Assembly (NCBI GenBank): GCA_945859975.1
Contig: CAMAPH010000003.1
Location: 90,871 to 154,870 of the forward strand
DNA length: 64,000 nucleotides
Source: Chthonomonas calidirosea
Lineage (GTDB): Bacteria > Armatimonadota > Fimbriimonadia > Fimbriimonadales > Fimbriimonadaceae
Direction: 5' to 3'
Every line of letters begins with the position of its first letter. The stretch's first letter is position 1. A program made the translations under genes and the position numbers. This document shows, piece after piece, positions 24,867 through 64,000 of this stretch. The notes beneath the pieces are model-generated. The model did no database searches and was not told where the DNA came from. It saw only the letters and a list, made by a program, of their open reading frames with translations.

Positions 24867-25314
24867 TGATCACCGGGATGCCCCCCATCGGGTCCGTGCC
24901 GACGGCATAGATCTGATCACGCTGAATGTCAAAAGCGATCGATCGATCCGGGGTCGTCTGCGTTACCGGGGCGGAGTCCGCCTTTAAGACGAATTGTAAG
25001 ACCAATAAGGTAGCAACCATCGAGCAGGCAGCGATTCCGGCAAACGTGAACGCTGGTCGGAATTGGAAGTTCCACTGTTTGCGCGGTGGTTCCACTTGGC
25101 GCATCACGTTCGCGATGAGGCGCTCTTCGAAGCATTCTGCTGGCTCTGGGGCGGCGCAGCGACCGAGCATTTGTTTGATGGTCGCGAGCGAGTCCATCTC
25201 TTCGCGGCACGATGCACAGTCAAAAACGTGAGCCCGAACGGCCGTATGTTCGTTGCCTGGTAGCTCCTTATCCAGATAGGCACTCAGCCTTGCTTGCACG
25301 GCTTTACAGTTCAT
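24841..25314 (-). CDS. zinc-binding (zf-HC2/ZAS) transmembrane anti-sigma factor
   Basis: MNC...LSAYLD.EL, HVFDCASC (HxxxCxxC), one TM helix; start ATG 25314. Confidence 0.88.
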   Translation of the reverse strand: MNCKAVQARLSAYLDKELPGNEHTAVRAHVFDCASCREEMDSLATIKQMLGRCAAPEPAECFEERLIANVMRQVEPPRKQWNFQFRPAFTFAGIAACSMVATLLVLQFVLKADSAPVTQTTPDRSIAFDIQRDQIYAVGTDPMGGIPVINVQSDPNR

Positions 25315-25900
25315 TTGCAAACCTTCCAAAGAAATCTGGGGAGTTCTTGAGTAAGTGATCCCGAAGTTGCTTTCTACCCCGATGGATGCGGGACCTCACG
25401 GTGCCAACGCTTGTTTTCATAATCTCGGCGACTTCTTCGTACGCCATGCCTTCTACGTCCGCAAGAATAACGGCCGTTCGAAAATCCTCGTTCATCGAGA
25501 GCAAAGCCTTCTGAACTGGCTCCGCCATCGAATCATTCATAAGCTCTCGGTCGGGCGACGACTCCTCGTCAGCAACGTCCCAAGTCGTCGTTCCTTCTGG
25601 TCCCGAGTTGTCCAGGCTCGTGGTTTTGAGCCGACCTTTTCGGCGAATCAGGTCGATGTGCGTGTTGCTGATGATGCGATACAGCCAGCTGGTAAATGGC
25701 AGGCGGTCATCGTATTTATCGAAGAATCGGAACGCACGAACGAACGATTCCTGAACCAAATCCTCGGCTTCCGACGGATTTCCGGTTAGGCGATACGCAA
25801 GGCCGTAAGCCTGCTTGTGGGTATCACGAATGAGCCCCTCGAACATTCGCGCTCGATCTTTCACAACCTCGGTCCTTTCTCTCAAAGCTGCAAACAGCAT
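25304..25900 (-). CDS. ECF RNA polymerase sigma factor (RpoE/SigW-like)
   Basis: AEDLVQE.F, FTSWLYRI, GMAYEEVAE, GTVRSRIHRGR. Confidence 0.95.
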   Translation of the reverse strand: MLFAALRERTEVVKDRARMFEGLIRDTHKQAYGLAYRLTGNPSEAEDLVQESFVRAFRFFDKYDDRLPFTSWLYRIISNTHIDLIRRKGRLKTTSLDNSGPEGTTTWDVADEESSPDRELMNDSMAEPVQKALLSMNEDFRTAVILADVEGMAYEEVAEIMKTSVGTVRSRIHRGRKQLRDHLLKNSPDFFGRFANEL

Positions 25901-30228: not shown

Positions 30229-31202
30229 TAGTTCGCTACCAGTCCCCACATTGGGTAGTTGATGTTCAAGTTCGGCTGCACGAAGCCGAGGTTGCCCGAG
30301 GTCAGGTACCGGCAGTCGTCCTGGAAGGTCCAGCCTGCGGTGTGGCTACCCGTCACGCCCAAGTACTCGAGCTTCGAAGGGGTTCGGCCGAGGAAGTTTC
30401 CAGCATTAAGGAACTTCGCGCTGCCGTCAGTGAAGCCAACGGTGACGCCGCCCGAAGCGATCTTTGCCGAGTCTGGCTCGGTTCCGCTGGTTCCTGCGAT
30501 GCAGTCAGCGATCGTGCCCTTCATGAGCTTATAACGCCAGAATTCCCGGATTGCTGCTGGGTAGATCGTGACGGTTGGGGTGATTCCCTGGGAGTCGACC
30601 GATCCGCCTGGAAGCATTGGAACGCCGGAGTTTGGAACTTCCAGCATGATCAACGTCTCGGATGGCGATGGAACCGAGGTGGTGGAACCGCCAAGCCAGC
30701 TGTTTCGAACCTGTCGCGAGAAGGTCGGCGTTCGGTTGTAGGTGTCCAACTGTCCGGTAACCGAGGTATTCAGTGCAAAACCGCCAACGATCTGGCCGTT
30801 GTTGTTCCAGTTTGCGCTGTCCTTAACGCGAAGTGGGTGCTCGAAGAGAGGAACGTTCTTGATGTACGGGAAAACCCACTTCTGCCAAGAGAAAGCGTTT
30901 CGTCGGTACTTGAAGTTGCCGGTGGTGCAGCCGACGCCGATACCGTTAGCCGGAAAGTCGTTGAGGTTCAGAGCTGAGTTCAGCGAGCTACCAGCAACGC
31001 AATCGTCGTTTCGCGGATACAGGTCGTCGTAGTCGGTGGTGTAGAGGATGATGCCGAGACCGATCTGCTTCTGGTTCGAAAGTGCAGCGGTCTTCTTCGC
31101 CGCAAGCTTGGCTTGTGCGAATACAGGGAACAAGATCGCCGCTAGGATCGCAATAATCGCGATCACGACTAGGAGCTCGATAAGGGTGAATGCTTTTTTC
31201 AT
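30228..31202 (-). CDS. prepilin-type N-terminal cleavage/methylation protein (DUF1559-like) 3
   Basis: [11 protein letters not shown] start at 31202; FTDGSAK; ends NYPMWGL. Confidence 0.92.
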   Translation of the reverse strand: MKKAFTLIELLVVIAIIAILAAILFPVFAQAKLAAKKTAALSNQKQIGLGIILYTTDYDDLYPRNDDCVAGSSLNSALNLNDFPANGIGVGCTTGNFKYRRNAFSWQKWVFPYIKNVPLFEHPLRVKDSANWNNNGQIVGGFALNTSVTGQLDTYNRTPTFSRQVRNSWLGGSTTSVPSPSETLIMLEVPNSGVPMLPGGSVDSQGITPTVTIYPAAIREFWRYKLMKGTIADCIAGTSGTEPDSAKIASGGVTVGFTDGSAKFLNAGNFLGRTPSKLEYLGVTGSHTAGWTFQDDCRYLTSGNLGFVQPNLNINYPMWGLVAN

Positions 31203-53826: not shown

Positions 53827-55707
53827 TCATGCCAACACCACCGAGCGGGAGACCGCAAACGCCAAGAACAGCAGGGCGAGATAGAGCATGGAGTAGTGGA
53901 AAAGTGAACTTGCGTGCGGTCGATCTATGTTTCGCCATAGCTCGATGCACTTGCGGACAAGGAGAAGATTGAGGATCGCCGCCGCGATGCCGTAGATCCA
54001 GCCGACTTGCGGCATCAGGAACGGAATCATGGTGACGATAACCGTCACGACGGTGTAGATGCCGATCTGCTGAACGGTGACCTTTTCGCCTTTCACAACG
54101 GGCAGCATTGGAACGCCGGCCGAAGCGTAGTCGTCCTTCAACATCAAAGCAAGAGCCCAGAAATGAACGGGGGTCCAAACGAAGATGATCGCGAAAAGAT
54201 ACAGCGCTAGCGGCGGCAAATCGTTGGTTACGGCGGACCAACCGACAAGAGGCGGGAAGGCACCGGCGGCTCCACCAATGACGATGTTGTGCCAAGTTCG
54301 ACGCTTCAAGAGCATCGTGTAGACCACAACATAGAATACGAGTCCGCTAAGAGCCATCACGGCACTCAACAGGTTCGAACTCAGCCAAAGAAGCAGGAAC
54401 GATCCGGAGCTGAGTGCGAACGCGAACGTGAGCACTTGGCGAGAGGTAATCGACTGAGTCACGGTTGGCCGACTCGCCGTTCGCTTCATCGTCAAATCGA
54501 TGTCGCGGTCGATGACCATATTGATTGCGTTCGCCGCACCGGCCGACATGTATCCACCGAGCGCAACGGCAAGGAACTGCCAGATTGGCGGGAAATGACC
54601 TTGCGCCGCGACCATTGCGGTCAGCGTAGTGAACAGAAGCAAACTGATGACGCGAGGCTTTGTGAGCGCAATGTATGCGTTGACCAGAGCGCGACCCTTG
54701 AGTGGTTCGCCCGCCTCAACGCTGTCCGGCGCCGGTCGCCACTCAACGCGTTCGACATTGTCGGCGAGGGCAAACATCGCCACGCCGGTCATCGTAACGA
54801 CCAAGATGTCCGCCATCACCAGATGGAACACCTGCATGAAGATCGGGGCGTTGTACCAGATCGTGATGCCGCCAACGATGCATTGAAAAATGTAAACGCC
54901 GGACATCAGCTGAGCCGCCGCTTTGACCTGTGGACTCGGCCTCAAGTGAATGATGAGCCCGGCGTAAAGGAAGATGTATAGCCCTACCGAAGCCGCAATC
55001 AGCGGATGTAGCGGCTGAAGCTGAACCATCCAGTGGCTCGTGGGATCCTTCGCAGCTTGAAGAACGTTCTCTGCCCGGTGAAGCTGATGAGCAAGAGCCG
55101 AGACGGCGCCGCTGAAGCCAAGCAATACGGCCCCAACGAACCCCATCACGATCATGGTGCCAGCCGTGCCCTGCCCTTTACTGAGCATCTTCGGCGCGCC
55201 ACCGGCGCTCAATGCGGCCATCGCAAGCGAAGCGAGAAGCGAGTAGGTCGAGACAACGTGGAAGGCCATTACGGCCGCTCGTAGTGGCGTGTCGTTTACC
55301 GTAACTAGCTGAAACTTCACGAGGGCGGCGCCAATTAATCCTTCCAGCGCCGTTAGAACGAAGGTCGCCACCGTCGCTTTCCGGACCAAGTGTCCTTTCG
55401 GAAAGATGCGGAACGCCCAAATGACCAACCCAAGCACAAGCGGCCCGAGGATTGCGGTGGACAGTCGATGCGAAAGCTCAATCACGCGGCCCATGCTTCC
55501 GGCCATCGGGCTGTGCGACTGATCGCAGCCTAGCCAAATGTCGCCGCAACCATCGCCGGAGAAGCTGGCTCGGACGTAAACGCCCCAACCGATCGCCAAA
55601 AGGGTGTAAACAAGAAGGCCCCAAGCGAACTTCGCAAACGGCGGAAGCAGCTTGAACGATTCACTGTACTTTCTGAAATTATTGAAAGTTGAGAATACTC
55701 CCTTCAT
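53827..55707 (-). CDS. fused heme A synthase (CtaA/COX15) and heme O synthase (CtaB/CyoE)
   Basis: N-half SGDGCGD.W.GC, IELSHR, further His; C-half LTKPRVI, N...DRDID..M.RT..RP, YT..LKRRT..NIVIGG, WTPVHFWAL. Confidence 0.9.
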   Translation of the reverse strand: MKGVFSTFNNFRKYSESFKLLPPFAKFAWGLLVYTLLAIGWGVYVRASFSGDGCGDIWLGCDQSHSPMAGSMGRVIELSHRLSTAILGPLVLGLVIWAFRIFPKGHLVRKATVATFVLTALEGLIGAALVKFQLVTVNDTPLRAAVMAFHVVSTYSLLASLAMAALSAGGAPKMLSKGQGTAGTMIVMGFVGAVLLGFSGAVSALAHQLHRAENVLQAAKDPTSHWMVQLQPLHPLIAASVGLYIFLYAGLIIHLRPSPQVKAAAQLMSGVYIFQCIVGGITIWYNAPIFMQVFHLVMADILVVTMTGVAMFALADNVERVEWRPAPDSVEAGEPLKGRALVNAYIALTKPRVISLLLFTTLTAMVAAQGHFPPIWQFLAVALGGYMSAGAANAINMVIDRDIDLTMKRTASRPTVTQSITSRQVLTFAFALSSGSFLLLWLSSNLLSAVMALSGLVFYVVVYTMLLKRRTWHNIVIGGAAGAFPPLVGWSAVTNDLPPLALYLFAIIFVWTPVHFWALALMLKDDYASAGVPMLPVVKGEKVTVQQIGIYTVVTVIVTMIPFLMPQVGWIYGIAAAILNLLLVRKCIELWRNIDRPHASSLFHYSMLYLALLFLAFAVSRSVVLA

Positions 55708-55776: not shown

Positions 55777-57165
55777 TTAGGCGATTCTCGGGAAGCCGCG
55801 TTCGTTGAACAGGCTAGTCGCATGTTCAATCTGCGTCTTCATTGCTTCTGGCCCAGGAGCACCTAGGGAATTTCTGCGCGCTACCGAACCCGTCGCACTG
55901 AGCACCGACAGCGCGGTTTCTGGAATTTCAGGGGCAATTTCGTGCAGCTTTTCTGGCGTTAGGTCTTCCAAAACGATGCCTTCGCTCACGCAGGCAACGA
56001 CGATTTGTCCGACGATTTCGTGAGCTCTCCGGAACGGGACACCTTGCGATGCCAAGTAATCGGCTAGGTCGGTGGCGGTCGAGAAGTCTCCGTAGGTTCC
56101 TGCGGCCATTCGCTCAAGTTGCCAATCGGCAGATTTGAGCATCAAGTTGATCAGCTCAATGCTGTCTCGGCACTTGCGAAGGCTATCGAAGAGCGGTGGC
56201 TTGTCTTCTTGGGTGTCTCGGTTGTAGCCGAGTGGCAACGCCTTCATCACGCCCGCAAGCGTGGTCCAGTTGGCAATTGCCCGGGCGGTTCGGCCACGGA
56301 TCAACTCGGCCATGTCCGGATTTCGCTTCTGGGGCATGATGCTAGAGCCGGTGGTAACACCGTCGGCGAGCTTCACGAAGCCGAATTCCTTACCGCTCCA
56401 GAGAATCAGTTCTTGAGAAACGCGGCTCAAGTCCAGCATGATCAGCGCGCAAAGGTGGAGCGCATCGAGGATGTACGACCGATCGCTTGTGGCATCGAGC
56501 GCGTTCGGAATCGGAGCAATGAAACCAAGTTCGTCGCTCGTCATCTGCCGGTCGATGGGGAATGAAGTTCCGGCCAGCGCAGCGGAGCCAAGCGGACAGT
56601 GGTTCGTCACGGTAAGGATTCGCTCGGCGCGGCAGCCGTGCCGCTGGAGGGCCCAGAAGTGAGCCAAGAAGTGGAAGCCAAGGGTGATCGGCTGGGCGCG
56701 CTGCTGGTGGGTGTAGCCCGGCATCAGCGCGGATTGATACTCTGCGCCAAGCTCAAGTAAGAGTCCCTGCAGGTTCTTCAGGTCGTCCTGAAGCGAAATG
56801 AGCTCGTTGACGACGTACATTCGGGTGTCGGTCGCGACTTGGTCATTTCGAGATCGAGCGGTGTGGAGCTTGCCCGCTACGTCGCCAACGAGTTCATAGA
56901 GTCGTGTCTCGATGGCGGTGTGAATGTCTTCGACGTCGAGCTTGAGATAGCTCGGGCCCTGTTCGTGGATTTTTTCGAGTCCATCGATGAGTTGCTTGGC
57001 TTCATCTTTTGTTAAGATGCCAACTTCCCCAAGCATCCGCGCATGCGCAACGCTGGCAATGATGTCCTCTTGCCAAAAATTCAGATCCGAGTGGATCGTT
57101 TGTCCAAAACGATCCACCAGTTCCGATGTGCTCTCTGTAAACGCTCCGCCCCACAGCTTCCGCAT
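55777..57165 (-). CDS. argH: argininosuccinate lyase
   Basis: KLWGG.F, EDIH, LHTARSRNDQ, GYTH, TGSSIMPQKRNPD. Confidence 0.97.
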   Translation of the reverse strand: MRKLWGGAFTESTSELVDRFGQTIHSDLNFWQEDIIASVAHARMLGEVGILTKDEAKQLIDGLEKIHEQGPSYLKLDVEDIHTAIETRLYELVGDVAGKLHTARSRNDQVATDTRMYVVNELISLQDDLKNLQGLLLELGAEYQSALMPGYTHQQRAQPITLGFHFLAHFWALQRHGCRAERILTVTNHCPLGSAALAGTSFPIDRQMTSDELGFIAPIPNALDATSDRSYILDALHLCALIMLDLSRVSQELILWSGKEFGFVKLADGVTTGSSIMPQKRNPDMAELIRGRTARAIANWTTLAGVMKALPLGYNRDTQEDKPPLFDSLRKCRDSIELINLMLKSADWQLERMAAGTYGDFSTATDLADYLASQGVPFRRAHEIVGQIVVACVSEGIVLEDLTPEKLHEIAPEIPETALSVLSATGSVARRNSLGAPGPEAMKTQIEHATSLFNERGFPRIA

Positions 57166-57262
57166 GCCGAGATTCTTTTACCCGCCAATCGAGATTGCCG
57201 GGTGACCTTCTTTTGATTCGGAAGTAAATTTTCTTACCGATTGCATTATCACCATCAAAGTT

Positions 57263-58633
57263 CTAGGCCGCTCGCTTTGCGATTGTGTTTTCGTGCACGG
57301 TCGCAAAGCTCTCAATCAGAGCTTGTGCAGGAACACCTTTCGAGACCAGGAATGAGGTTGCTGCAAATGCTCGGGCGCCAGAACCGCAGTGCACGGCGCA
57401 GGGTTGCATTTGCTCAACCGTGCTGCTCAACAGCCGAAAGATCGGCAAGTGCTTCGAACCTGGTACGTGCATTTCCGCCCGCTCGGACCCGGTTCGAACG
57501 TCGACGATTGACATGTCGTTCGGTACATCCTGAGACTGAACTTGTGGAAATGCCTGCCAGTCGGATTGAGGAACGCTTCCGGAAAGCGAATATCCGCGGA
57601 TATCCCTGAACCCAATGCTTTGTAAGGCAGCCACGGCCGCCTTTGCATTCTTGTCCGAATCGCTGAGCACAACAATCGGTCGGCCGAACTCAACAAGTGA
57701 TCCTGCCCAGTTCGTGAACGAGCGACCAAGAGGAATCGTCAAGCTGCGGTGAAGGTACTGACTCAACACTGCAGGTCGTTGACGAGTGTCGATCACTTGA
57801 AAGTCTTGTCCGAACAAATCCTTCAGGACGTTGCCGGCATATCTGCGAAACGGAGTTGCGTAATCCTCGGCGGTGAGACCAAGCTTGTTGACGCGTTTCA
57901 TTTCGGCGAAATATCCCGGCGGCTCGGGTTGGTTAGCCAACGCTTCGGCAACAAATGCTTCTTCGGTTTGCAGTTGCAAACCCCAGTTATGCCTGCGCTC
58001 TTGGCCAAGCGTCGTTTCTGGGGTGCCGCCCAGGCTCTTGCCGCAGGCTGATCCTGCGCCATGTCCTGGCCAAATGAGGATGGAATCGTCGTACTTGGCC
58101 AGCTTCTGAACAGATTGGTACAGCACTTTCGCGCTGTCTTCCATCGTGTTCGCCATTCCCGCTGCCGTTTCGAGGAGGTCTGGCCGCCCGAGGTCGCCAA
58201 CAAAGACGAAGTCGCCGGTGAAGAGCCCCAGCGTTTCGCCATCGCTGGTTTCTAAGCCGAAAGTGAGGTGTTCTGGGGTGTGCCCCGGAGTGTGGATGGC
58301 TCGAACAACGATCTTTCCAATCTGGATGGTGTCGCCATCTTTGAGTAGGCGCGCGGAGTCTGCAAAGGCGTACTTCCATTCTGCGGGGCCCTCGTCTGAG
58401 ACATGGAGCTGTGCGCCCGTCCGAATAGCGAGCTCTCTCGATCCCGATACAAAGTCGGCATGAATGTGAGTTTCGGTGACGTGGCTGATCTTAAGACCAT
58501 TGCGTTCGGCAAAGTCCAGATAGCGATCGAGGTTCGTGGTCGGATCGATCACGATCGCCTCGCCAACTACCGGACAGGCGATGAGAAAGCTAGCCTGGGC
58601 AAGCATGTCATCGAAGAAACGTTCGAAAATCAC
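57263..58633 (-). CDS. MBL-fold persulfide dioxygenase fused to rhodanese domains (CstB-like)
   Basis: ETHIHADF.SG, TPGHTPEH, TGD..FVGD.GRPDL, PGHGAGSACG, C-terminal HCGSGARA rhodanese. Confidence 0.9.
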   Translation of the reverse strand: MIFERFFDDMLAQASFLIACPVVGEAIVIDPTTNLDRYLDFAERNGLKISHVTETHIHADFVSGSRELAIRTGAQLHVSDEGPAEWKYAFADSARLLKDGDTIQIGKIVVRAIHTPGHTPEHLTFGLETSDGETLGLFTGDFVFVGDLGRPDLLETAAGMANTMEDSAKVLYQSVQKLAKYDDSILIWPGHGAGSACGKSLGGTPETTLGQERRHNWGLQLQTEEAFVAEALANQPEPPGYFAEMKRVNKLGLTAEDYATPFRRYAGNVLKDLFGQDFQVIDTRQRPAVLSQYLHRSLTIPLGRSFTNWAGSLVEFGRPIVVLSDSDKNAKAAVAALQSIGFRDIRGYSLSGSVPQSDWQAFPQVQSQDVPNDMSIVDVRTGSERAEMHVPGSKHLPIFRLLSSTVEQMQPCAVHCGSGARAFAATSFLVSKGVPAQALIESFATVHENTIAKRAA

Positions 58634-59169
58634 GCTCGCACCTCCACTGAATTCTTCTGCTTTGGCTTATTCCAAGGCATCGCTCCCAAGAGCATGGCGA
58701 AGCCGCAGATATCCGTAAGGCCAGCGAAGGTGAGCCCGGCTCCAACGAACCCAGCCAGCCCGAACCAGGCAGGCGAAACCGTCGCACCAAGGATTGTCCC
58801 GGCGAGCACCATAAGTCCCGCACCAAAGCGAACTTGCCGTTCGAGCGCCCAGGTTGAATTGGCGCTGGCAACAACGGAATGTCCGGCCTGCTTCCAAGCC
58901 TCCGTTCCGCCTTCCAAAATCACCGAGTTAGCAAGGTCGGAAGGAATCCGCGCACAGGCCATCGTTGCACGGGTGCCTGACTTGCAGACCAAAACGACAT
59001 CCGACTGAAGATCGGCATGACGCGCTTCTACTTGTTCAAGTGGGATGTTGATTGCGCCGGGGATGTGGCCAACGTTGTATTCGCCGGGACTACGGACATC
59101 GACGATTTGGAGTCTGGATCCAGACTCGAGTTGCCGGGACAGCTCTTGTGCGCTGACGGTTTTGTTCAT
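58630..59169 (-). CDS. rhodanese + DUF2892 membrane protein (YgaP-like)
   Basis: DVRSPGEY..GHIPGA, CKSGTR, LERQV, GAGL.FAG...C. Confidence 0.9.
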   Translation of the reverse strand: MNKTVSAQELSRQLESGSRLQIVDVRSPGEYNVGHIPGAINIPLEQVEARHADLQSDVVLVCKSGTRATMACARIPSDLANSVILEGGTEAWKQAGHSVVASANSTWALERQVRFGAGLMVLAGTILGATVSPAWFGLAGFVGAGLTFAGLTDICGFAMLLGAMPWNKPKQKNSVEVRA

Positions 59170-59178
59170 TCTGTTGGG

Positions 59179-59208
59179 TAAGAGTGCCGTCCGGGCGGCA
59201 AGGATTCA
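59179..59208 (-). promoter_or_regulatory. putative ECF promoter TGAATCCTT-N15-CTCTTA (copy 2)
   Basis: same bipartite motif and spacing as 59964-59993; 9 nt before ATG. Confidence 0.7.
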
Positions 59209-59958
59209 TTTCCACTCCTGAATCAGAACAAAGATCGCCGTAAGAACAACGGTGACCGCAAAAGCCTGCTTGAGTTGTGGAACCTGGAGCTTTGATCTCA
59301 CAAGGATTCCCACAACCATTCCGAGGAGGGCAACCGAGGTAACGCTCCAGATGGTTGGCCATGGATAGGTTCGGCCACCCATGACATCTGCGCTTATGCC
59401 CGCAAGGCAGTTGATGGTGATAATCCCAAGGGAGGTGCCGAGCGCCACCGGCAATGAAAGTCCGAGGCCAAGAACGAGGGCCGGGATAATCAGGAAGCCG
59501 CCGCCTGCGCCAAGTATGCCGCTCAGCGCGCCTACGACAACCGCACTAACGATCACTTTCCAGAGGGCAATCTGAGCCTTCTTGTCATCGACTGGTCGAG
59601 TCATCGCGTACGCGGCAAGAATCATCAGGCCAGCGAACGCGGACATCAGCAACTTGTCGATCTCAAAGCCAAAAACCGTCTTCGGCACAAATTGAAAGAA
59701 GAGGGTCCGCGAAAGGATTGCTACGGTTAACGAGATCGGGGAGAAGATGAGCAGCGTTTTGTAGTCAATATTCTTCTGCCAAGCACTGGTTGCGGTGCCG
59801 ATGGCGCTAAGAATTCCGACCACCACGAACGCGGCCCCGGTTGCAGCCTGCGGGCTGATGCCGAACCCGTAGACGAGCAGGGGCACGGTCAAGATTGAGC
59901 CTCCGGCGCCAACAAGGCCCAGACTCAGACCCATAAGCGCGGACAATAGCCAAGTCAC
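59206..59958 (-). CDS. sulfite exporter TauE/SafE family
   Basis: duplicated GL.G.GG..L.(V/I)P motifs, GTSL, polytopic. Confidence 0.9.
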   Translation of the reverse strand: MTWLLSALMGLSLGLVGAGGSILTVPLLVYGFGISPQAATGAAFVVVGILSAIGTATSAWQKNIDYKTLLIFSPISLTVAILSRTLFFQFVPKTVFGFEIDKLLMSAFAGLMILAAYAMTRPVDDKKAQIALWKVIVSAVVVGALSGILGAGGGFLIIPALVLGLGLSLPVALGTSLGIITINCLAGISADVMGGRTYPWPTIWSVTSVALLGMVVGILVRSKLQVPQLKQAFAVTVVLTAIFVLIQEWK

Positions 59959-59963
59959 GGTGT

Positions 59964-59993
59964 TAAGAGCGGCGACCGCTGGTAAAGGATTCA
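59964..59993 (-). promoter_or_regulatory. putative ECF promoter TGAATCCTT-N15-CTCTTA (copy 1)
   Basis: 5 nt before tauE GTG; second identical copy before the rhodanese gene. Confidence 0.7.
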
Positions 59994-60506
59994 GGCGCAG
60001 GCATGCTGGTCTAAGTAGTCGCGAACAATGTGGCGGGCGCGATGGAGTCGCGACTTCACCGCCGCAATGGATATTCCAAGCTCGCTCGCTGTCTCCTCGG
60101 CGGAAACTTGCTTTAACTCACGCAGTTCGTAAACCTCTTTCATTTTGGGCGGAAGGGAGTCCAGAGCATCAATGACGCATCGATGCATTTCTGCAGCTTC
60201 GACCTGCTGTTCAACATTGATGGACGGGTCTACAGGCTCGAATCCATCTTGTAGGGCCAGGATGGGCCTAAGTGCTTCGTGCCTTTTTATCCTCGTGCAG
60301 GCGCGTCTTGCGATCATCGCCAGCCACGCTTGAAATGCCGCAGGATCTTTGAGGTTTTCTTGGAATCGATATGCGTTCAGGAGCGACTCAACCAGGACAT
60401 CCTCGGCATCATCGATGTTTCCGCAAACGCGGACCATCTGTCGATACACCGCGTCTTTGTGCTGCCTGACGAGCCGCTCGTACTCCACGCTTGTATTGTG
60501 CTTCAC
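59991..60506 (-). CDS. ECF RNA polymerase sigma factor
   Basis: DAEDVL, FQAWL..IA, ETASELGIS..AVKSRLHRAR; GTGA overlap with dnaE2 stop. Confidence 0.9.
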   Translation of the reverse strand: MKHNTSVEYERLVRQHKDAVYRQMVRVCGNIDDAEDVLVESLLNAYRFQENLKDPAAFQAWLAMIARRACTRIKRHEALRPILALQDGFEPVDPSINVEQQVEAAEMHRCVIDALDSLPPKMKEVYELRELKQVSAEETASELGISIAAVKSRLHRARHIVRDYLDQHACA

Positions 60507-63500
60507 CCCACTAGAAAGTCCGCGACGGCAACGGGGAGTTTGATTTTCCGATCTTGCAGTAGCTGTGGACGGTAAGGGAAAACGCGGTGGGCCAAGAAGG
60601 CCATGTGGCCGTCTCGATCTTGGGCTTCTCCGATGATGGTCACGTAAGGCGAGCAGACGATCGCATGCCCGTCTCGCTGGTAGACCGCATCAAAACATGT
60701 GACATTGAGGAGCCCAGCTTCATCTTCAAGATCGAAGAAAACCACGCGCTTTCCGCTCGGGGTCGGGGGAAAGCGGAGTCGGATGGGATTGCCAACGACG
60801 ATTGCCTTTTGCCCAGGTTTGAGGGATTTTGCCCGACTGCTGAGCACTCCCCCTCGGGAGGAAATGCGATCTCTTTCGAAGGCCATGAGGTGATGTTCAA
60901 TATCAAGCCCCATCACGCGGCGCTCGTGAACGGCTTTCTCGGCTTCGGAAAAATCCTCAATCTCATTCGGAATTTGGGGTTCCGGGACGTCGAACGGTAG
61001 CTCAGGGTTTGCCGAAGGTTCGATTTCCGCCAGCGCCATTGCTTCTGGAATCGCCCAGAGGAGGGCTCGACGGTTGGGATGCAAAGAATCAAAAGCTCCG
61101 GCTAGGATCAGATTCTCTAACTCATCACGATTGGGCCGAATTCGGGAACAGAAATCGAAAATGGACCGAAACCGAATCTGCTGGTTGGCGGGGTTGGCGT
61201 GGAAACCCGTGCCATCTGGTGCGGTACCGAGGTTGATCACGGTGGGGGTTTGGACGATTCGCTCACGGGTGTCTTCCGACAAACCTGCAATTTGGGTGAG
61301 TCCCACCCGGATGGCCCCATTCGGAACGATAACCTTCGGGTCCATCGCGCTTTTGGCGTCTTCGACGCTGAATTCCGCCCCAGATCGATTGACATCTGGG
61401 TGAAGGATTGGCACTCCCCGGACCCTTGCCTCATTGACGATGGTGCACGGGCCGTAATAGCCCGCCGGTTGGGCAGAGAGGAGGGAGGCAAAGTACTCCG
61501 CCGGGAAGTTCTGCTGGCAGTAGACACTTCGAATCGAAACCTCGGCAAAGGCCAAAGCGTGACCCTGGGCGAAGCCGTAGCCTTTGAATCCCGCAACGTA
61601 CTCAAACACCTGCTCAGCCACCGCGGGGGAGAATCCGTTTGCGGTCACCCGCTTGAGAAGTTCATCCCGAATGGTCTGACCAAAATCTTCTCTTCGGCGC
61701 TTATGAATCGCATCCCGTATGTCTTCTGCTTCCCCACCGGTATAGCCGCAGAAGGTCTGTAAAAGCTGGTCAACCTGTTCCTGGAAAACGATGATTCCGT
61801 AGGTGTGGCCAAGAATCGCTTCGAATTTGGGATCGAGAAAGGTGTAGGGCTTGCCTCTTCTTCGGGCGATGAGTTCGTTGATCTTGACCGCACCACCGAC
61901 ACCGGGTCGGATGCCAGCTTGGACAAGACTCGCATCTTCCAGATTGTCGGTCTTTAGCCGAACGTGGGCTTGGCGCATGGCGGGAGAAGCGGATTGAGGG
62001 ATGCCAATCAGCTCTCCCGAGCGAAAGGAACGATAGATTTCTGGATCGTCGATCGGCACCGACTGGACGTTGAAGCTCTCATCGTGCTGACGCATTCTCC
62101 TCTCGGTGCCTGAGAGCACATCTTGCCCACGAAGACAGAGGATGTCGAACTTGTCGAAGTAATACTTTGCCGAGCGTTTGTCCCATTGAATAAGGCGGAG
62201 ATTTTCTTGTTGCCCGTCATATTCGCAGTCCGAGGCGCTCCACATGACGGGGACCGTTTCGGAAAGTGCCCGATCTGAAATGACCACTCCGGACGAATGG
62301 CATCGCATGTCACGAGGAACGTCCATGAGCAATTCGGCGAGGCGGAATACCCAGCGGAACTTGTCTTTCGGAATGCCGCTGCCCCGAAGCTCGGGCTTCT
62401 TTTCGAGCGCAGAGAGAATTTGGTCTGGGGCCACTCCGCCGTGCATGCGTTTCGCCAAGAAGCTGATGGACTCGCTGGGCAACCCGAGCGCTTTGCCGAC
62501 TTCGCGAATGATGCCGCGGCTGCAGAAAGCGCCGATCGCGGCAACTTGCCCCACCCGGTCAACCCCGTACTTTTGAATCAGATAGTTCCGAATATCGTTC
62601 CTTCGGTGAGCCTCGAAGTCGATATCAATATCAGGTCGCTTCGTTCCGTCATCGGGCAGAAATCGGTCGAAGTGGAGCTTGTGCCGGATGGCATCTATCC
62701 TAGACATCCCGAGCACATAGGACACCGCGGAGTCTACGACTGACCCACGTCCGCTGAGTTGGATATTCCGATCTCGAGCCCAATCGCAGAAGTCGGTTGC
62801 CACGAGGAAGTGACCGGAAAAACCAAGCTTCGCTATTCGGGCGAGTTCGAAGTGCAAACGCTTTTTGTGCTTGACGGAATCCAGTCCATAGACCGCCCGG
62901 GCGCGCACATCCACGATCTGCTTCAGGGCTTCGTCATCATTCTCATACAGGGCAGGGAGTCGGGTTCGGGAGGGCAAGACGTCCTCGTCGATGGCCTCTG
63001 CAATTCGAAAAGTGTTTTCGACCCACTCCGGTTCATCCGCATATCGAGCTCGCATCTCGATTGCGGTGAGAAAGAACCTTTCAGCGTTCATTGACCGTGC
63101 TGGCATGTGAGGCACGGCGGGTTGGCCGTCGGCTCGCTGAGGCTTGCGGCCGACCACTTCTTCCACCAAAGAAAGAGAGTGCGAGCACATCAGCGCGTCT
63201 TGCGCGGGGAACTGGTCGCGCCGTGGGTGGGTAATCGGCCCGCCAGCAACCTGGAGAAGTTGATGTCGCTCGGCTAGTTGATTGAGTCGAGACTCGACGA
63301 TCTGCTCCCAAGGGTGCCAGGACCGCTCCATTTGAATGTAAACCTGCCCCACCCCATAAAGCTCTTTCAAACGGGAAACGATCTCATCCGCCCGGTCTTG
63401 TTCGTTAGCCATAAGGGCACGATTGACAGGACCAAGGTCACCACCGGTGAGACACAAGAGGTCGCGAGAGTAGCGTTGTAACAAGGACCAATCGGCAAGG

Positions 63501-64000
63501 GGAAAACCTCGTGGCTGGTTCAAGTGGCATTCGGTGATGAGCTGCGAAAGTCCGGTGTATCCCCGCTTGCTACGGGCATAGAGGACCAAACTTCCACCCT
63601 CTGGAATCTCGATGGACGCCCCGATTAGCGGCTTGATTCCTTGGCGATTACAAGCTCGTTTGAACTCTACGCAACCAATCAGCGAGAAGGGATCGGCGAT
63701 CCCTACGGCCGTGCAACCGCATTGAGCGCCGTAGGCCGCGAGTTCCTCGGCGAGGATGATGCTGCGGCCAAAGCCGTAGCCCGACATGCCGTGAATCGCC
63801 ACGTAAGGGCCTGATTGCGACGGGGCGTAGGCAATAACCTGCCCGGCTTCGGGCCGAAGATCGGGGCGAGTCGGAACGGCTCGGCTTCGTGTTCTCGCCC
63901 CCAGCCGCTCCTCTCGGACGCGTTCGTAATAGGTTTCCGGGAGGTCGCCACAGGCGGCAGCGCATTTTTCGTCGCGGACTTTTCGCTCTCGCAGAACCCA
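60503..64000 (-). CDS. dnaE2: DNA polymerase III alpha, error-prone DnaE2 type (5' truncated by window)
   Basis: GRGS, PDIDIDF, QWDK, KFDIL, GYGF...HA, AQPAGYY, C-terminal OB fold; frame stays open from 63802 to the window end. Confidence 0.85.
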   Translation of the reverse strand, partial: WVLRERKVRDEKCAAACGDLPETYYERVREERLGARTRSRAVPTRPDLRPEAGQVIAYAPSQSGPYVAIHGMSGYGFGRSIILAEELAAYGAQCGCTAVGIADPFSLIGCVEFKRACNRQGIKPLIGASIEIPEGGSLVLYARSKRGYTGLSQLITECHLNQPRGFPLADWSLLQRYSRDLLCLTGGDLGPVNRALMANEQDRADEIVSRLKELYGVGQVYIQMERSWHPWEQIVESRLNQLAERHQLLQVAGGPITHPRRDQFPAQDALMCSHSLSLVEEVVGRKPQRADGQPAVPHMPARSMNAERFFLTAIEMRARYADEPEWVENTFRIAEAIDEDVLPSRTRLPALYENDDEALKQIVDVRARAVYGLDSVKHKKRLHFELARIAKLGFSGHFLVATDFCDWARDRNIQLSGRGSVVDSAVSYVLGMSRIDAIRHKLHFDRFLPDDGTKRPDIDIDFEAHRRNDIRNYLIQKYGVDRVGQVAAIGAFCSRGIIREVGKALGLPSESISFLAKRMHGGVAPDQILSALEKKPELRGSGIPKDKFRWVFRLAELLMDVPRDMRCHSSGVVISDRALSETVPVMWSASDCEYDGQQENLRLIQWDKRSAKYYFDKFDILCLRGQDVLSGTERRMRQHDESFNVQSVPIDDPEIYRSFRSGELIGIPQSASPAMRQAHVRLKTDNLEDASLVQAGIRPGVGGAVKINELIARRRGKPYTFLDPKFEAILGHTYGIIVFQEQVDQLLQTFCGYTGGEAEDIRDAIHKRRREDFGQTIRDELLKRVTANGFSPAVAEQVFEYVAGFKGYGFAQGHALAFAEVSIRSVYCQQNFPAEYFASLLSAQPAGYYGPCTIVNEARVRGVPILHPDVNRSGAEFSVEDAKSAMDPKVIVPNGAIRVGLTQIAGLSEDTRERIVQTPTVINLGTAPDGTGFHANPANQQIRFRSIFDFCSRIRPNRDELENLILAGAFDSLHPNRRALLWAIPEAMALAEIEPSANPELPFDVPEPQIPNEIEDFSEAEKAVHERRVMGLDIEHHLMAFERDRISSRGGVLSSRAKSLKPGQKAIVVGNPIRLRFPPTPSGKRVVFFDLEDEAGLLNVTCFDAVYQRDGHAIVCSPYVTIIGEAQDRDGHMAFLAHRVFPYRPQLLQDRKIKLPVAVADFLVG

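Follow-up and report, generated by a model that had tools for sequence, protein, structure and literature searches.

How is a cluster of persulfide and sulfite genes controlled when it is headed by an extracytoplasmic function (ECF) sigma factor gene that has no anti-sigma gene beside it? This question is raised by four tightly packed minus-strand genes, spanning positions 57263-60506 of a 64,000-nucleotide stretch of Chthonomonas calidirosea DNA (assembly GCA_945859975.1, contig CAMAPH010000003.1, positions 90,871 to 154,870; hereafter the window). A first reading of the letters, made without database searches (the sequence-only reading), had given the gene order as sigma, tauE, rhodanese/DUF2892 and metallo-beta-lactamase (MBL)-rhodanese, had seen an identical bipartite motif twice, and had proposed this motif as the sigma's probable promoter. 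The gene order was confirmed by open reading frames (ORFs) and Pfam, and the promoter proposal stood up to conservation, to layouts suggesting autoregulation, and to a published promoter prediction. Genes and motif copies, in the direction of transcription, are the following:

59991-60506, minus strand, ECF sigma gene (PF04542 and PF08281; longest ORF 171 aa)
59964-59993, minus strand, putative promoter 1: -35 TGAATCCTT (59993-59985), which holds the sigma stop codon, and -10 CTCTTA (59969-59964), 5 nt before the tauE GTG
59206-59958, minus strand, tauE, a TauE/SafE-family membrane permease (nominal sulfite exporter; 250 aa, GTG start, PF01925, E 1.3e-31)
59179-59208, minus strand, putative promoter 2: -35 TGAATCCTT (59208-59200), which holds the tauE stop codon, and -10 CTCTTA (59184-59179), 9 nt before the rhodanese ATG
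58630-59169, minus strand, YgaP-like membrane rhodanese gene (rhodanese plus DUF2892; 179 aa, PF00581 and PF11127)
57263-58633, minus strand, CstB-like gene for an MBL with two rhodanese-like domains (456 aa; Lactamase_B and rhodanese by Pfam)

Exactly two perfect copies of TGAATCCTT-N15-CTCTTA, with different spacers, are present in the window. The TGA within them is the stop codon of sigma in the first copy and of tauE in the second, as the sequence-only reading had noticed, and the promoter-like element takes up the entire 36-40 nt intergenic gap before tauE and before the ygaP-like/cstB-like pair. When up to 2 mismatches were allowed, 3 matches were found in the window against 0.06 expected, and none of 100 shuffled sequences gave as many. 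The additional match lies at 31187 and departs from the motif at 2 positions; no plus-strand ORF of at least 60 aa starts within 150 nt downstream of it and, judged by eye, it overlaps an apparent minus-strand start codon. A scan of the whole genome (3.1 Mb, 95.8% complete) found GAATCC-N15-19-CTCTTA nowhere other than at the two cluster sites. Using a position weight matrix (PWM) over the genome, control scores went up to 14.8 and site 1 of the window scored 13.7, meaning that this site is not separable by score alone. Two top PWM matches with CTCG (contigs C37 and C74), inside duplicated sequence, were judged to be chance matches.

Conservation of the motif was examined in 41 related genomes, 21 of which carry the sigma at E <= 1e-20, and in a one-genome-per-species scan covering Armatimonadota, Acidobacteriota and a few others, which yielded 80 further loci and a total of 101. 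The order sigma, tauE, rhodanese was found in 10 of the 21 loci of the first set, the window's own included, and all 10 have GAATC-N18-CTCT at both spots, with unrelated spacers and over a range of sigma identity of 39-97%. In two loci that lack tauE, the rhodanese gene is preceded by GAATC-N18-ATCT. Among the 101 loci, GAATC-N18-NTCT lies at most 100 nt upstream of 41 of the 55 genes for a rhodanese with a YgaP-type transmembrane part (rhodanese-TM) near sigma, and of 16 of the 18 tauE genes near sigma, for a background of 54 matches in 1.6 Mb on both strands (0.0034 per 100 nt). Most of the misses, by reading, are near-variants (CTCC or CACT in the -10, a 17-nt spacing, GAACC or AAATC in the -35) or reflect a start estimate that is off. 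Conserved features that the pattern did not impose are the position, a T before GAATC, CTTT after it, and a C before TCT; the family consensus from 56 instances is TGAATCCTTTT...CTCTtC.

The motif follows the sigma across phyla and gene orders, and three layouts can be distinguished. In layout A, that of the window's relatives, sigma is followed by a motif lying over its stop, tauE in part of the loci, a second motif, rhodanese-TM and MBL-rhodanese, and in 25 instances the start codon lies 7-12 nt from CTCT. Layout B, found in 36 Acidobacteriota loci, has a motif ahead of rhodanese-TM, sigma and an OsmC-like gene (OsmC by Pfam in 2 of 2); here the motif lies 14-37 nt before the start, with one outlier at 2 nt, purine-rich stretches resembling ribosome binding sites are present, and no gene ends in the motif. 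Layout C, in three Armatimonas-type loci, reads motif, tauE, motif, rhodanese-TM, MBL-rhodanese, AhpC-TSA_2 (optional) and sigma. Layouts B and C thus place the sigma gene inside a motif-headed operon, which is the classic arrangement of autoregulated ECF sigmas and provides the strongest argument that the motif is the sigma's own promoter.

The motif was also found apart from the cluster. In five congeneric genomes where no sulfur genes are adjacent to sigma, it occurred 24 times, versus 2 times for a reversed control, and correctly spaced copies precede genes for thioredoxin, OsmC, proteins consisting of YgaP-TM only, and an HlyD-type membrane-fusion protein. Based on these targets, the regulon appears to be a thiol and sulfane-sulfur stress regulon. 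In genome G041, sigma is followed by a motif with 17-nt spacing, then by a P-type ATPase gene with a C-terminal hemerythrin domain (L061 5495-7845), and a motif-tauE-motif-rhodanese-MBL cluster lies on another contig, C233 (L126, L127), unlinked to sigma. In the genome of the window, but outside it, a motif-like GAATCCTTC-N14-CTCTAA is present at G000:C4:59737 (L153 1238-1264), 168 nt upstream of cydA. Only the near-identical genome G014 keeps this site, whereas G020, another carrier of the sigma, lacks it before cydA; from base composition, chance alone would give about 0.26 sites of the kind in the genome of the window. The product of cydAB is cytochrome bd oxidase, an enzyme that tolerates sulfide. 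We consider the cydAB site as a lead and did not count it in the regulon.

A published group of ECF sigmas has the same promoter words. For ECF284, the available part of the supplement gives a predicted promoter with GAATCCTTT in the -35 and CTCTT in the -10 (Casas-Pastor et al. 2021, PMC7826278), and within that text it is the only group containing GAATC. According to the same text the group is experimentally uncharacterised, 100% Actinobacteria, and has a two-helix AhpC/TSA-like putative anti-sigma at +1; its description there makes no mention of rhodanese or TauE (0 matches). The sequence-only reading had left the ECF group to be classified. The promoter prediction for ECF284 matches, and an AhpC/TSA-type neighbour is shared by the Armatimonas members of our family (AhpC-TSA_2 beside the Armatimonas sigma), but the origin and the partner do not match for the window sigma, whose close relatives are Fimbriimonadaceae/Armatimonadota and whose +1 gene is TauE. 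The likeness is one of promoter and described neighbours. We conclude that the motif is, with high probability, the promoter that this sigma family recognises, a binding deduced from the pattern of conservation. Start sites at other ECF promoters lie roughly 5-8 nt past the -10 box. Judging from the spacing in the window, its transcripts would be near-leaderless, with leaders of about 0-5 nt.

What, then, is the sigma factor? It has the make-up of an ECF protein (group IV sigma-70, ~160-200 aa), with sigma2 (PF04542) at residues 12-77, sigma4 (PF08281) at residues 109-158 and no other domains; its best solved relatives are SigE, SigW, SigH and SigL, and it scores below every NCBIfam equivalog cut-off. 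The length of 171 aa given by the sequence-only reading is that of the longest ORF, which overlaps the dnaE2 stop, and it probably has to be revised. An alternative GTG at 60488 gives 165 aa. In the 84%-identical relative L025, an ATG occupies the position of this GTG, the longer frame being interrupted upstream by a 2-nt difference, and the two closest database homologues are 165 aa long; the real start is therefore probably the GTG at 60488. Residues are numbered on the 171-aa ORF throughout.

The four cysteines and the terminal HACA noted earlier are indeed present, at positions 28, 70, 110 and 170. Cys28 and Cys70 never vary: all 101 loci have them, and so do all 121 database proteins aligned. 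All four are found in the 18 orthologues of the relatives search (L003-L020), 17 of which belong to the window's genus, its own locus included, and one (L009) to another family of the same order. Among the 121 proteins, a single tail Cys accompanies Cys110 in 52 of 54 sequences, a tail CxxC occurs only without Cys110 (7 of 7), Cys110 stands alone in 31, and neither Cys110 nor a tail Cys is present in 29. The invariance of 28/70, together with the covariation of Cys110 with the tail Cys, fits two functional pairs, one in sigma2 (28/70) and one in sigma4 (110/170). An AlphaFold model predicts helices at 2-28, 31-47 and 55-86, with the last predicted helix ending at 168. From these positions, residue 70 would be about level with the 28-30 turn, making proximity of Cys28 and Cys70 plausible.

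The absence of an adjacent anti-sigma gene, stated in the sequence-only reading, was borne out at the level of known domains, as none was found by Pfam in any neighbour of sigma. No orphan gene for a zinc-associated anti-sigma (ZAS) was found in the genome either: each of its three zf-HC2 genes has another ECF gene as immediate neighbour. Within the window, positions 25204-25519 (G000:C3:116074-116389) hold a further ECF sigma gene, immediately followed by one for a zf-HC2 anti-sigma. The search was extended to the phylum of G041, which is labelled a Bifidobacteriaceae metagenome-assembled genome; two genomes of this phylum, G041 included, have close members of the sigma family without anti-sigma. 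In the next relatives, at 30-37% identity, the sigma gene overlaps by 4 nt a +1 gene for a 78-109 aa protein, and the 10 small proteins scanned all match zf-HC2, one of them below cut-off. Since zf-HC2 partners are present in these relatives and none in the lineage studied here, the family resembles a SigR/SigH-type lineage whose RsrA-like partner was lost. In one ZAS-bearing distant relative (L132 1459-1500, minus strand), the sigma stop again lies inside GAATCCTTT; a GTCT follows 26 nt on, with the start of the zf-HC2 gene directly behind it. The tight packing of sigma stop and -35 may thus predate the loss of the anti-sigma.

Comparison with known systems brings out a mixture of features. 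ECF12 sigmas (SigR-RsrA, SigH-RshA), as far as the available descriptions go, resemble the present one by thioredoxin in a thiol-redox regulon, a GAAT core in the -35 and a spacing of ~18 nt, and resemble the next-nearest relatives found by a sigma gene overlapping that of a zf-HC2 protein by 4 nt. They differ by their promoter, GGAAT-N17-18-GTT in the same descriptions, whereas the -10 box here is CTCT(T/G)A, and by a ZAS at +1, whereas here no ZAS is a neighbour and the three zf-HC2 genes adjoin other ECF genes. The window system also has a sigma with conserved cysteines and a regulon centred on persulfide/sulfite enzymes. In SigK-RskA (ECF18/19), a Cys133-Cys183 disulfide inside the sigma is described to tune its activity (PMC7509140). 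As with Cys110 and Cys170, one of these cysteines lies early in sigma4 and the other near the C-terminus. However, the spacing is 60 residues here and 50 in SigK, the SigK structure 4nqw is a weak match, and SigK keeps a dedicated RskA, while no RskA-type domain is found among the window neighbours; the sigma2 pair has no counterpart in the part of the SigK description available (PMC7509140). CorE, CorE2 and SigZ (ECF238, formerly ECF44) are reported, in the text available, to lack an anti-sigma and to be regulated through the sigma's own cysteines (PMC8999054, PMC7826278). Unlike these, the window sigma ends at 171, 3 residues past its last predicted helix (168), with a single Cys in its tail and a linker (78-109) free of Cys; a tail CxxC is present in 7 of 121 proteins of the family.

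On the side of the enzymes, the closest system is the S. aureus cst operon, with CstR, tauE, cstA, cstB and sqr. The window cluster shares with it a TauE permease, a sulfurtransferase and a CstB-type dioxygenase-rhodanese fusion, but has no repressor gene and no sqr, and a sigma factor instead. E. coli has the ygaV-ygaP pair, and both cst and ygaVP are controlled by persulfide-sensing repressors. No cognate repressor or activator gene was found in or beside the cluster, flanked by dnaE2 and argH, in an analysis in which ArsR-type and sigma54-type regulators were not searched for. Control of sulfur-oxidation genes by ECF sigmas has precedents in ECF26 (Starkeya novella SigE, Sinorhizobium RpoE1/RpoE4), whose members are tied to sulfur-compound detoxification in the text available (PMC7826278). 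The ECF26 sigmas differ from ours by a one-helix anti-sigma at +1 and a GGAATAAA/GTT promoter, according to the same source. The system of the window has a regulon like that of SigR, cysteines in the sigma like those of SigK or CorE, and enzymes like those of cst. A literature search, judged mostly from titles and abstract openings, found no paper on such a sigma.

The explanation we favour, to which we give about an even chance as a whole, is that of a four-gene module against thiol and sulfane-sulfur stress, under the control of its own ECF sigma, which would derive from a SigR/SigH-like lineage that lost its RsrA-type zinc anti-sigma. With this sigma, RNA polymerase would start at two promoters of the form GAATCCTT-N15-CTCT, one ahead of tauE and the other ahead of the ygaP-like/cstB-like pair. 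The activity of the sigma would be gated by thiol chemistry on its own cysteines, i.e. on the universal sigma2 pair 28/70, which the extra sigma4 pair 110/170 would join in this sub-lineage. Persulfide or disulfide stress, the presumed inducing signal, would modify the pairs and turn the sigma on, and the co-conserved membrane rhodanese would probably help, as a sulfur donor or a tether. The parts of this proposal differ in strength. Its anatomy, the conservation of the motif, the conservation and covariation of the cysteines, and the absence of a canonical anti-sigma are observed. For some kind of thiol switch on the sigma, we judge the case to be evenly balanced, and sensing by the sigma without any partner is a good deal less probable. 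The same reserve applies to its most pointed form, which we hold to be possible but doubtful: the sigma as the reactive-sulfur sensor itself, a SigR without ZAS whose thiol switch moved from the lost anti-sigma into the sigma. Cys28/70 would then form a metal or dithiol lock with Cys110/170 or with tail cysteines of the YgaP-like protein, and this would keep the sigma closed or bound to the membrane until persulfide or polysulfide breaks the lock, with sulfur perhaps delivered by the dedicated membrane rhodanese.

Several points weigh against this explanation. The 101 loci are mutually related and partly duplicated between the two sets (L004 and L024, for example), so that their counts overstate independence, and GAATC and TCT were the search pattern, which leaves position, flanking bases and spacing as the independent evidence for the promoter. 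The leader estimate depends on the ECF distance between -10 box and start quoted above. No copy of the motif lies upstream of the sigma gene itself, and since its frame abuts dnaE2, the level of the sigma may be set elsewhere. The AlphaFold model has a pTM of 0.44, meaning that the arrangement of the domains is undefined. Finally, Cys28 and Cys70 are also present in 7 distant relatives that have a ZAS partner, whereas the sigma4 pair was seen only in forms without one. The sigma2 pair would thus be older than the loss of the ZAS partner; it is no signature of independence from an anti-sigma and need not replace one. An alternative that takes up some of these points is that the sigma is not switched through its cysteines at all, which would be structural or ancestral leftovers, and that the cluster is set by the amount of sigma, through dnaE2 read-through or proteolysis. 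The position of the sigma start, overlapping the dnaE2 stop or 15 nt past it, agrees with this, as do the missing motif upstream, the age of the sigma2 pair, and a scan for sigma-70-like promoters over 57000-61000 that returned 0 sites, including none between dnaE2 and sigma. Yet dnaE2 is the neighbour only in the closest relatives (L004/L024 and L025), the sigma of Acidobacteriota and Armatimonas lies under its own promoter, a positive feedback that normally needs a post-translational brake, and the invariance of two cysteines with covariation of the other two is hard to square with leftovers. We consider this alternative quite unlikely. Far less probable still is that the motif is no promoter, and would act as the operator of a classical persulfide repressor or as an RNA or termination-reinitiation element between packed genes. 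It is true that every copy in the window spans a stop codon and ends beside a start codon, that both window spacers contain, by reading, short GC-rich inverted repeats, and that the genome has one CsoR-family gene. But the motif, bipartite and asymmetric, keeps its spacing while its spacer sequence varies, no gene ends in the Acidobacteriota copies, and the CsoR-family gene, on contig C13 beside sugar kinase and pilin-like genes, shows no link to sulfur genes. RNA-element and spacer-hairpin readings were rejected, as a consensus RNA structure had 0 pairs over 39 instances, the fold z-scores of the window copies were ordinary (+0.96 and -0.38), and the spacer hairpin z averaged -0.06 over 66 instances.

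The rhodanese that accompanies the sigma is a more serious rival regulator. The YgaP-like rhodanese/DUF2892 protein could be an unconventional anti-sigma or an obligatory co-sensor, a tentative reading that we place below an even chance. It would hold the sigma at the membrane, possibly through shared Cys ligands, and free it upon persulfidation of its catalytic Cys; such a mode of release is conceivable, if rather unlikely, and the same can be said of its corollary, that the sigma's own cysteines would only be the docking side. Its gene is the only constant neighbour of sigma, which it follows at +1 or +2 in the window's lineage and precedes at -1, in the same operon, in the 36 Acidobacteriota loci. 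It is always under the motif, and loci that lack the rhodanese domain have a YgaP-TM-only protein behind the motif (L049, L114, L118). Two-helix DUF2892 proteins have been proposed as a candidate new anti-sigma type for ECF285, in the text available (PMC7826278). The protein has its catalytic Cys62 in the N-terminal rhodanese domain and Cys155 in the C-terminal two-helix DUF2892 domain, both invariant in 52 sequences. The cytoplasmic tail bears one or more Cys in 33 of the 34 partners of 2-Cys sigmas, and two or more in 15 of them; of the 14 partners of 4-Cys sigmas, 8 have a tail without Cys and 6 a tail with one. Nevertheless, this contrast coincides with the split between phyla and may be lineage noise, the protein has no known anti-sigma fold by Pfam, a rhodanese is expected as a plain target in a sulfur-detoxification regulon, and many sigma genes of the family have no such rhodanese gene nearby. 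The YgaP-like protein may be the main target, a sulfur donor or an anti-sigma; considering that it accompanies sigma in nearly every layout, the statement that there is no anti-sigma may be wrong in substance.

If the favoured explanation held in its strongest form, it would provide the first demonstration of direct sulfane-sulfur sensing by a sigma factor, at work in at least three phyla. To our knowledge, the known bacterial sensors of persulfide or sulfide are repressors or enhancer-binding proteins (CstR, SqrR/BigR, FisR). The thiol-stress ECF sigmas SigR and SigH sense through a separate zinc anti-sigma. A sister lineage of SigR/SigH with no anti-sigma, invariant cysteines, a one-to-one link to a membrane rhodanese and a compact, portable promoter makes three questions directly testable: whether a sigma factor alone can be a thiol sensor, what role DUF2892/YgaP proteins play, and how a ZAS-dependent circuit is rewired. 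The sigma-promoter pair is also a candidate orthogonal, sulfur-responsive expression part.

Some details of the cluster and its surroundings remain to be reported. The MBL-rhodanese gene, whose start overlaps the stop of the rhodanese gene, and the rhodanese gene itself are each present in a single copy in the genome. The MBL-rhodanese protein gives full-length matches with PDB 3tp9 (E 3e-98, residues 2-434) and with 3r2u (E 1.2e-88, residues 1-434), the S. aureus protein, and matches the human persulfide dioxygenase ETHE1 more weakly (4chl, E 6e-12); it is by homology a CstB-type persulfide dioxygenase-rhodanese fusion, of predicted enzyme activity. The GTG start of tauE aligns with the ATG of its orthologues. 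Upstream of the cluster, the gene abutting sigma encodes a DnaE2-type error-prone polymerase (60503-63802, minus strand). A LexA gene is present on contig C13, and SOS-linked expression of the sigma is conceivable. Elsewhere in the window, positions 53827-55707 (minus strand) encode a 626-aa fusion of a CtaA/COX15 heme A synthase (residues 26-306) and a UbiA/CtaB prenyltransferase (residues 357-605).

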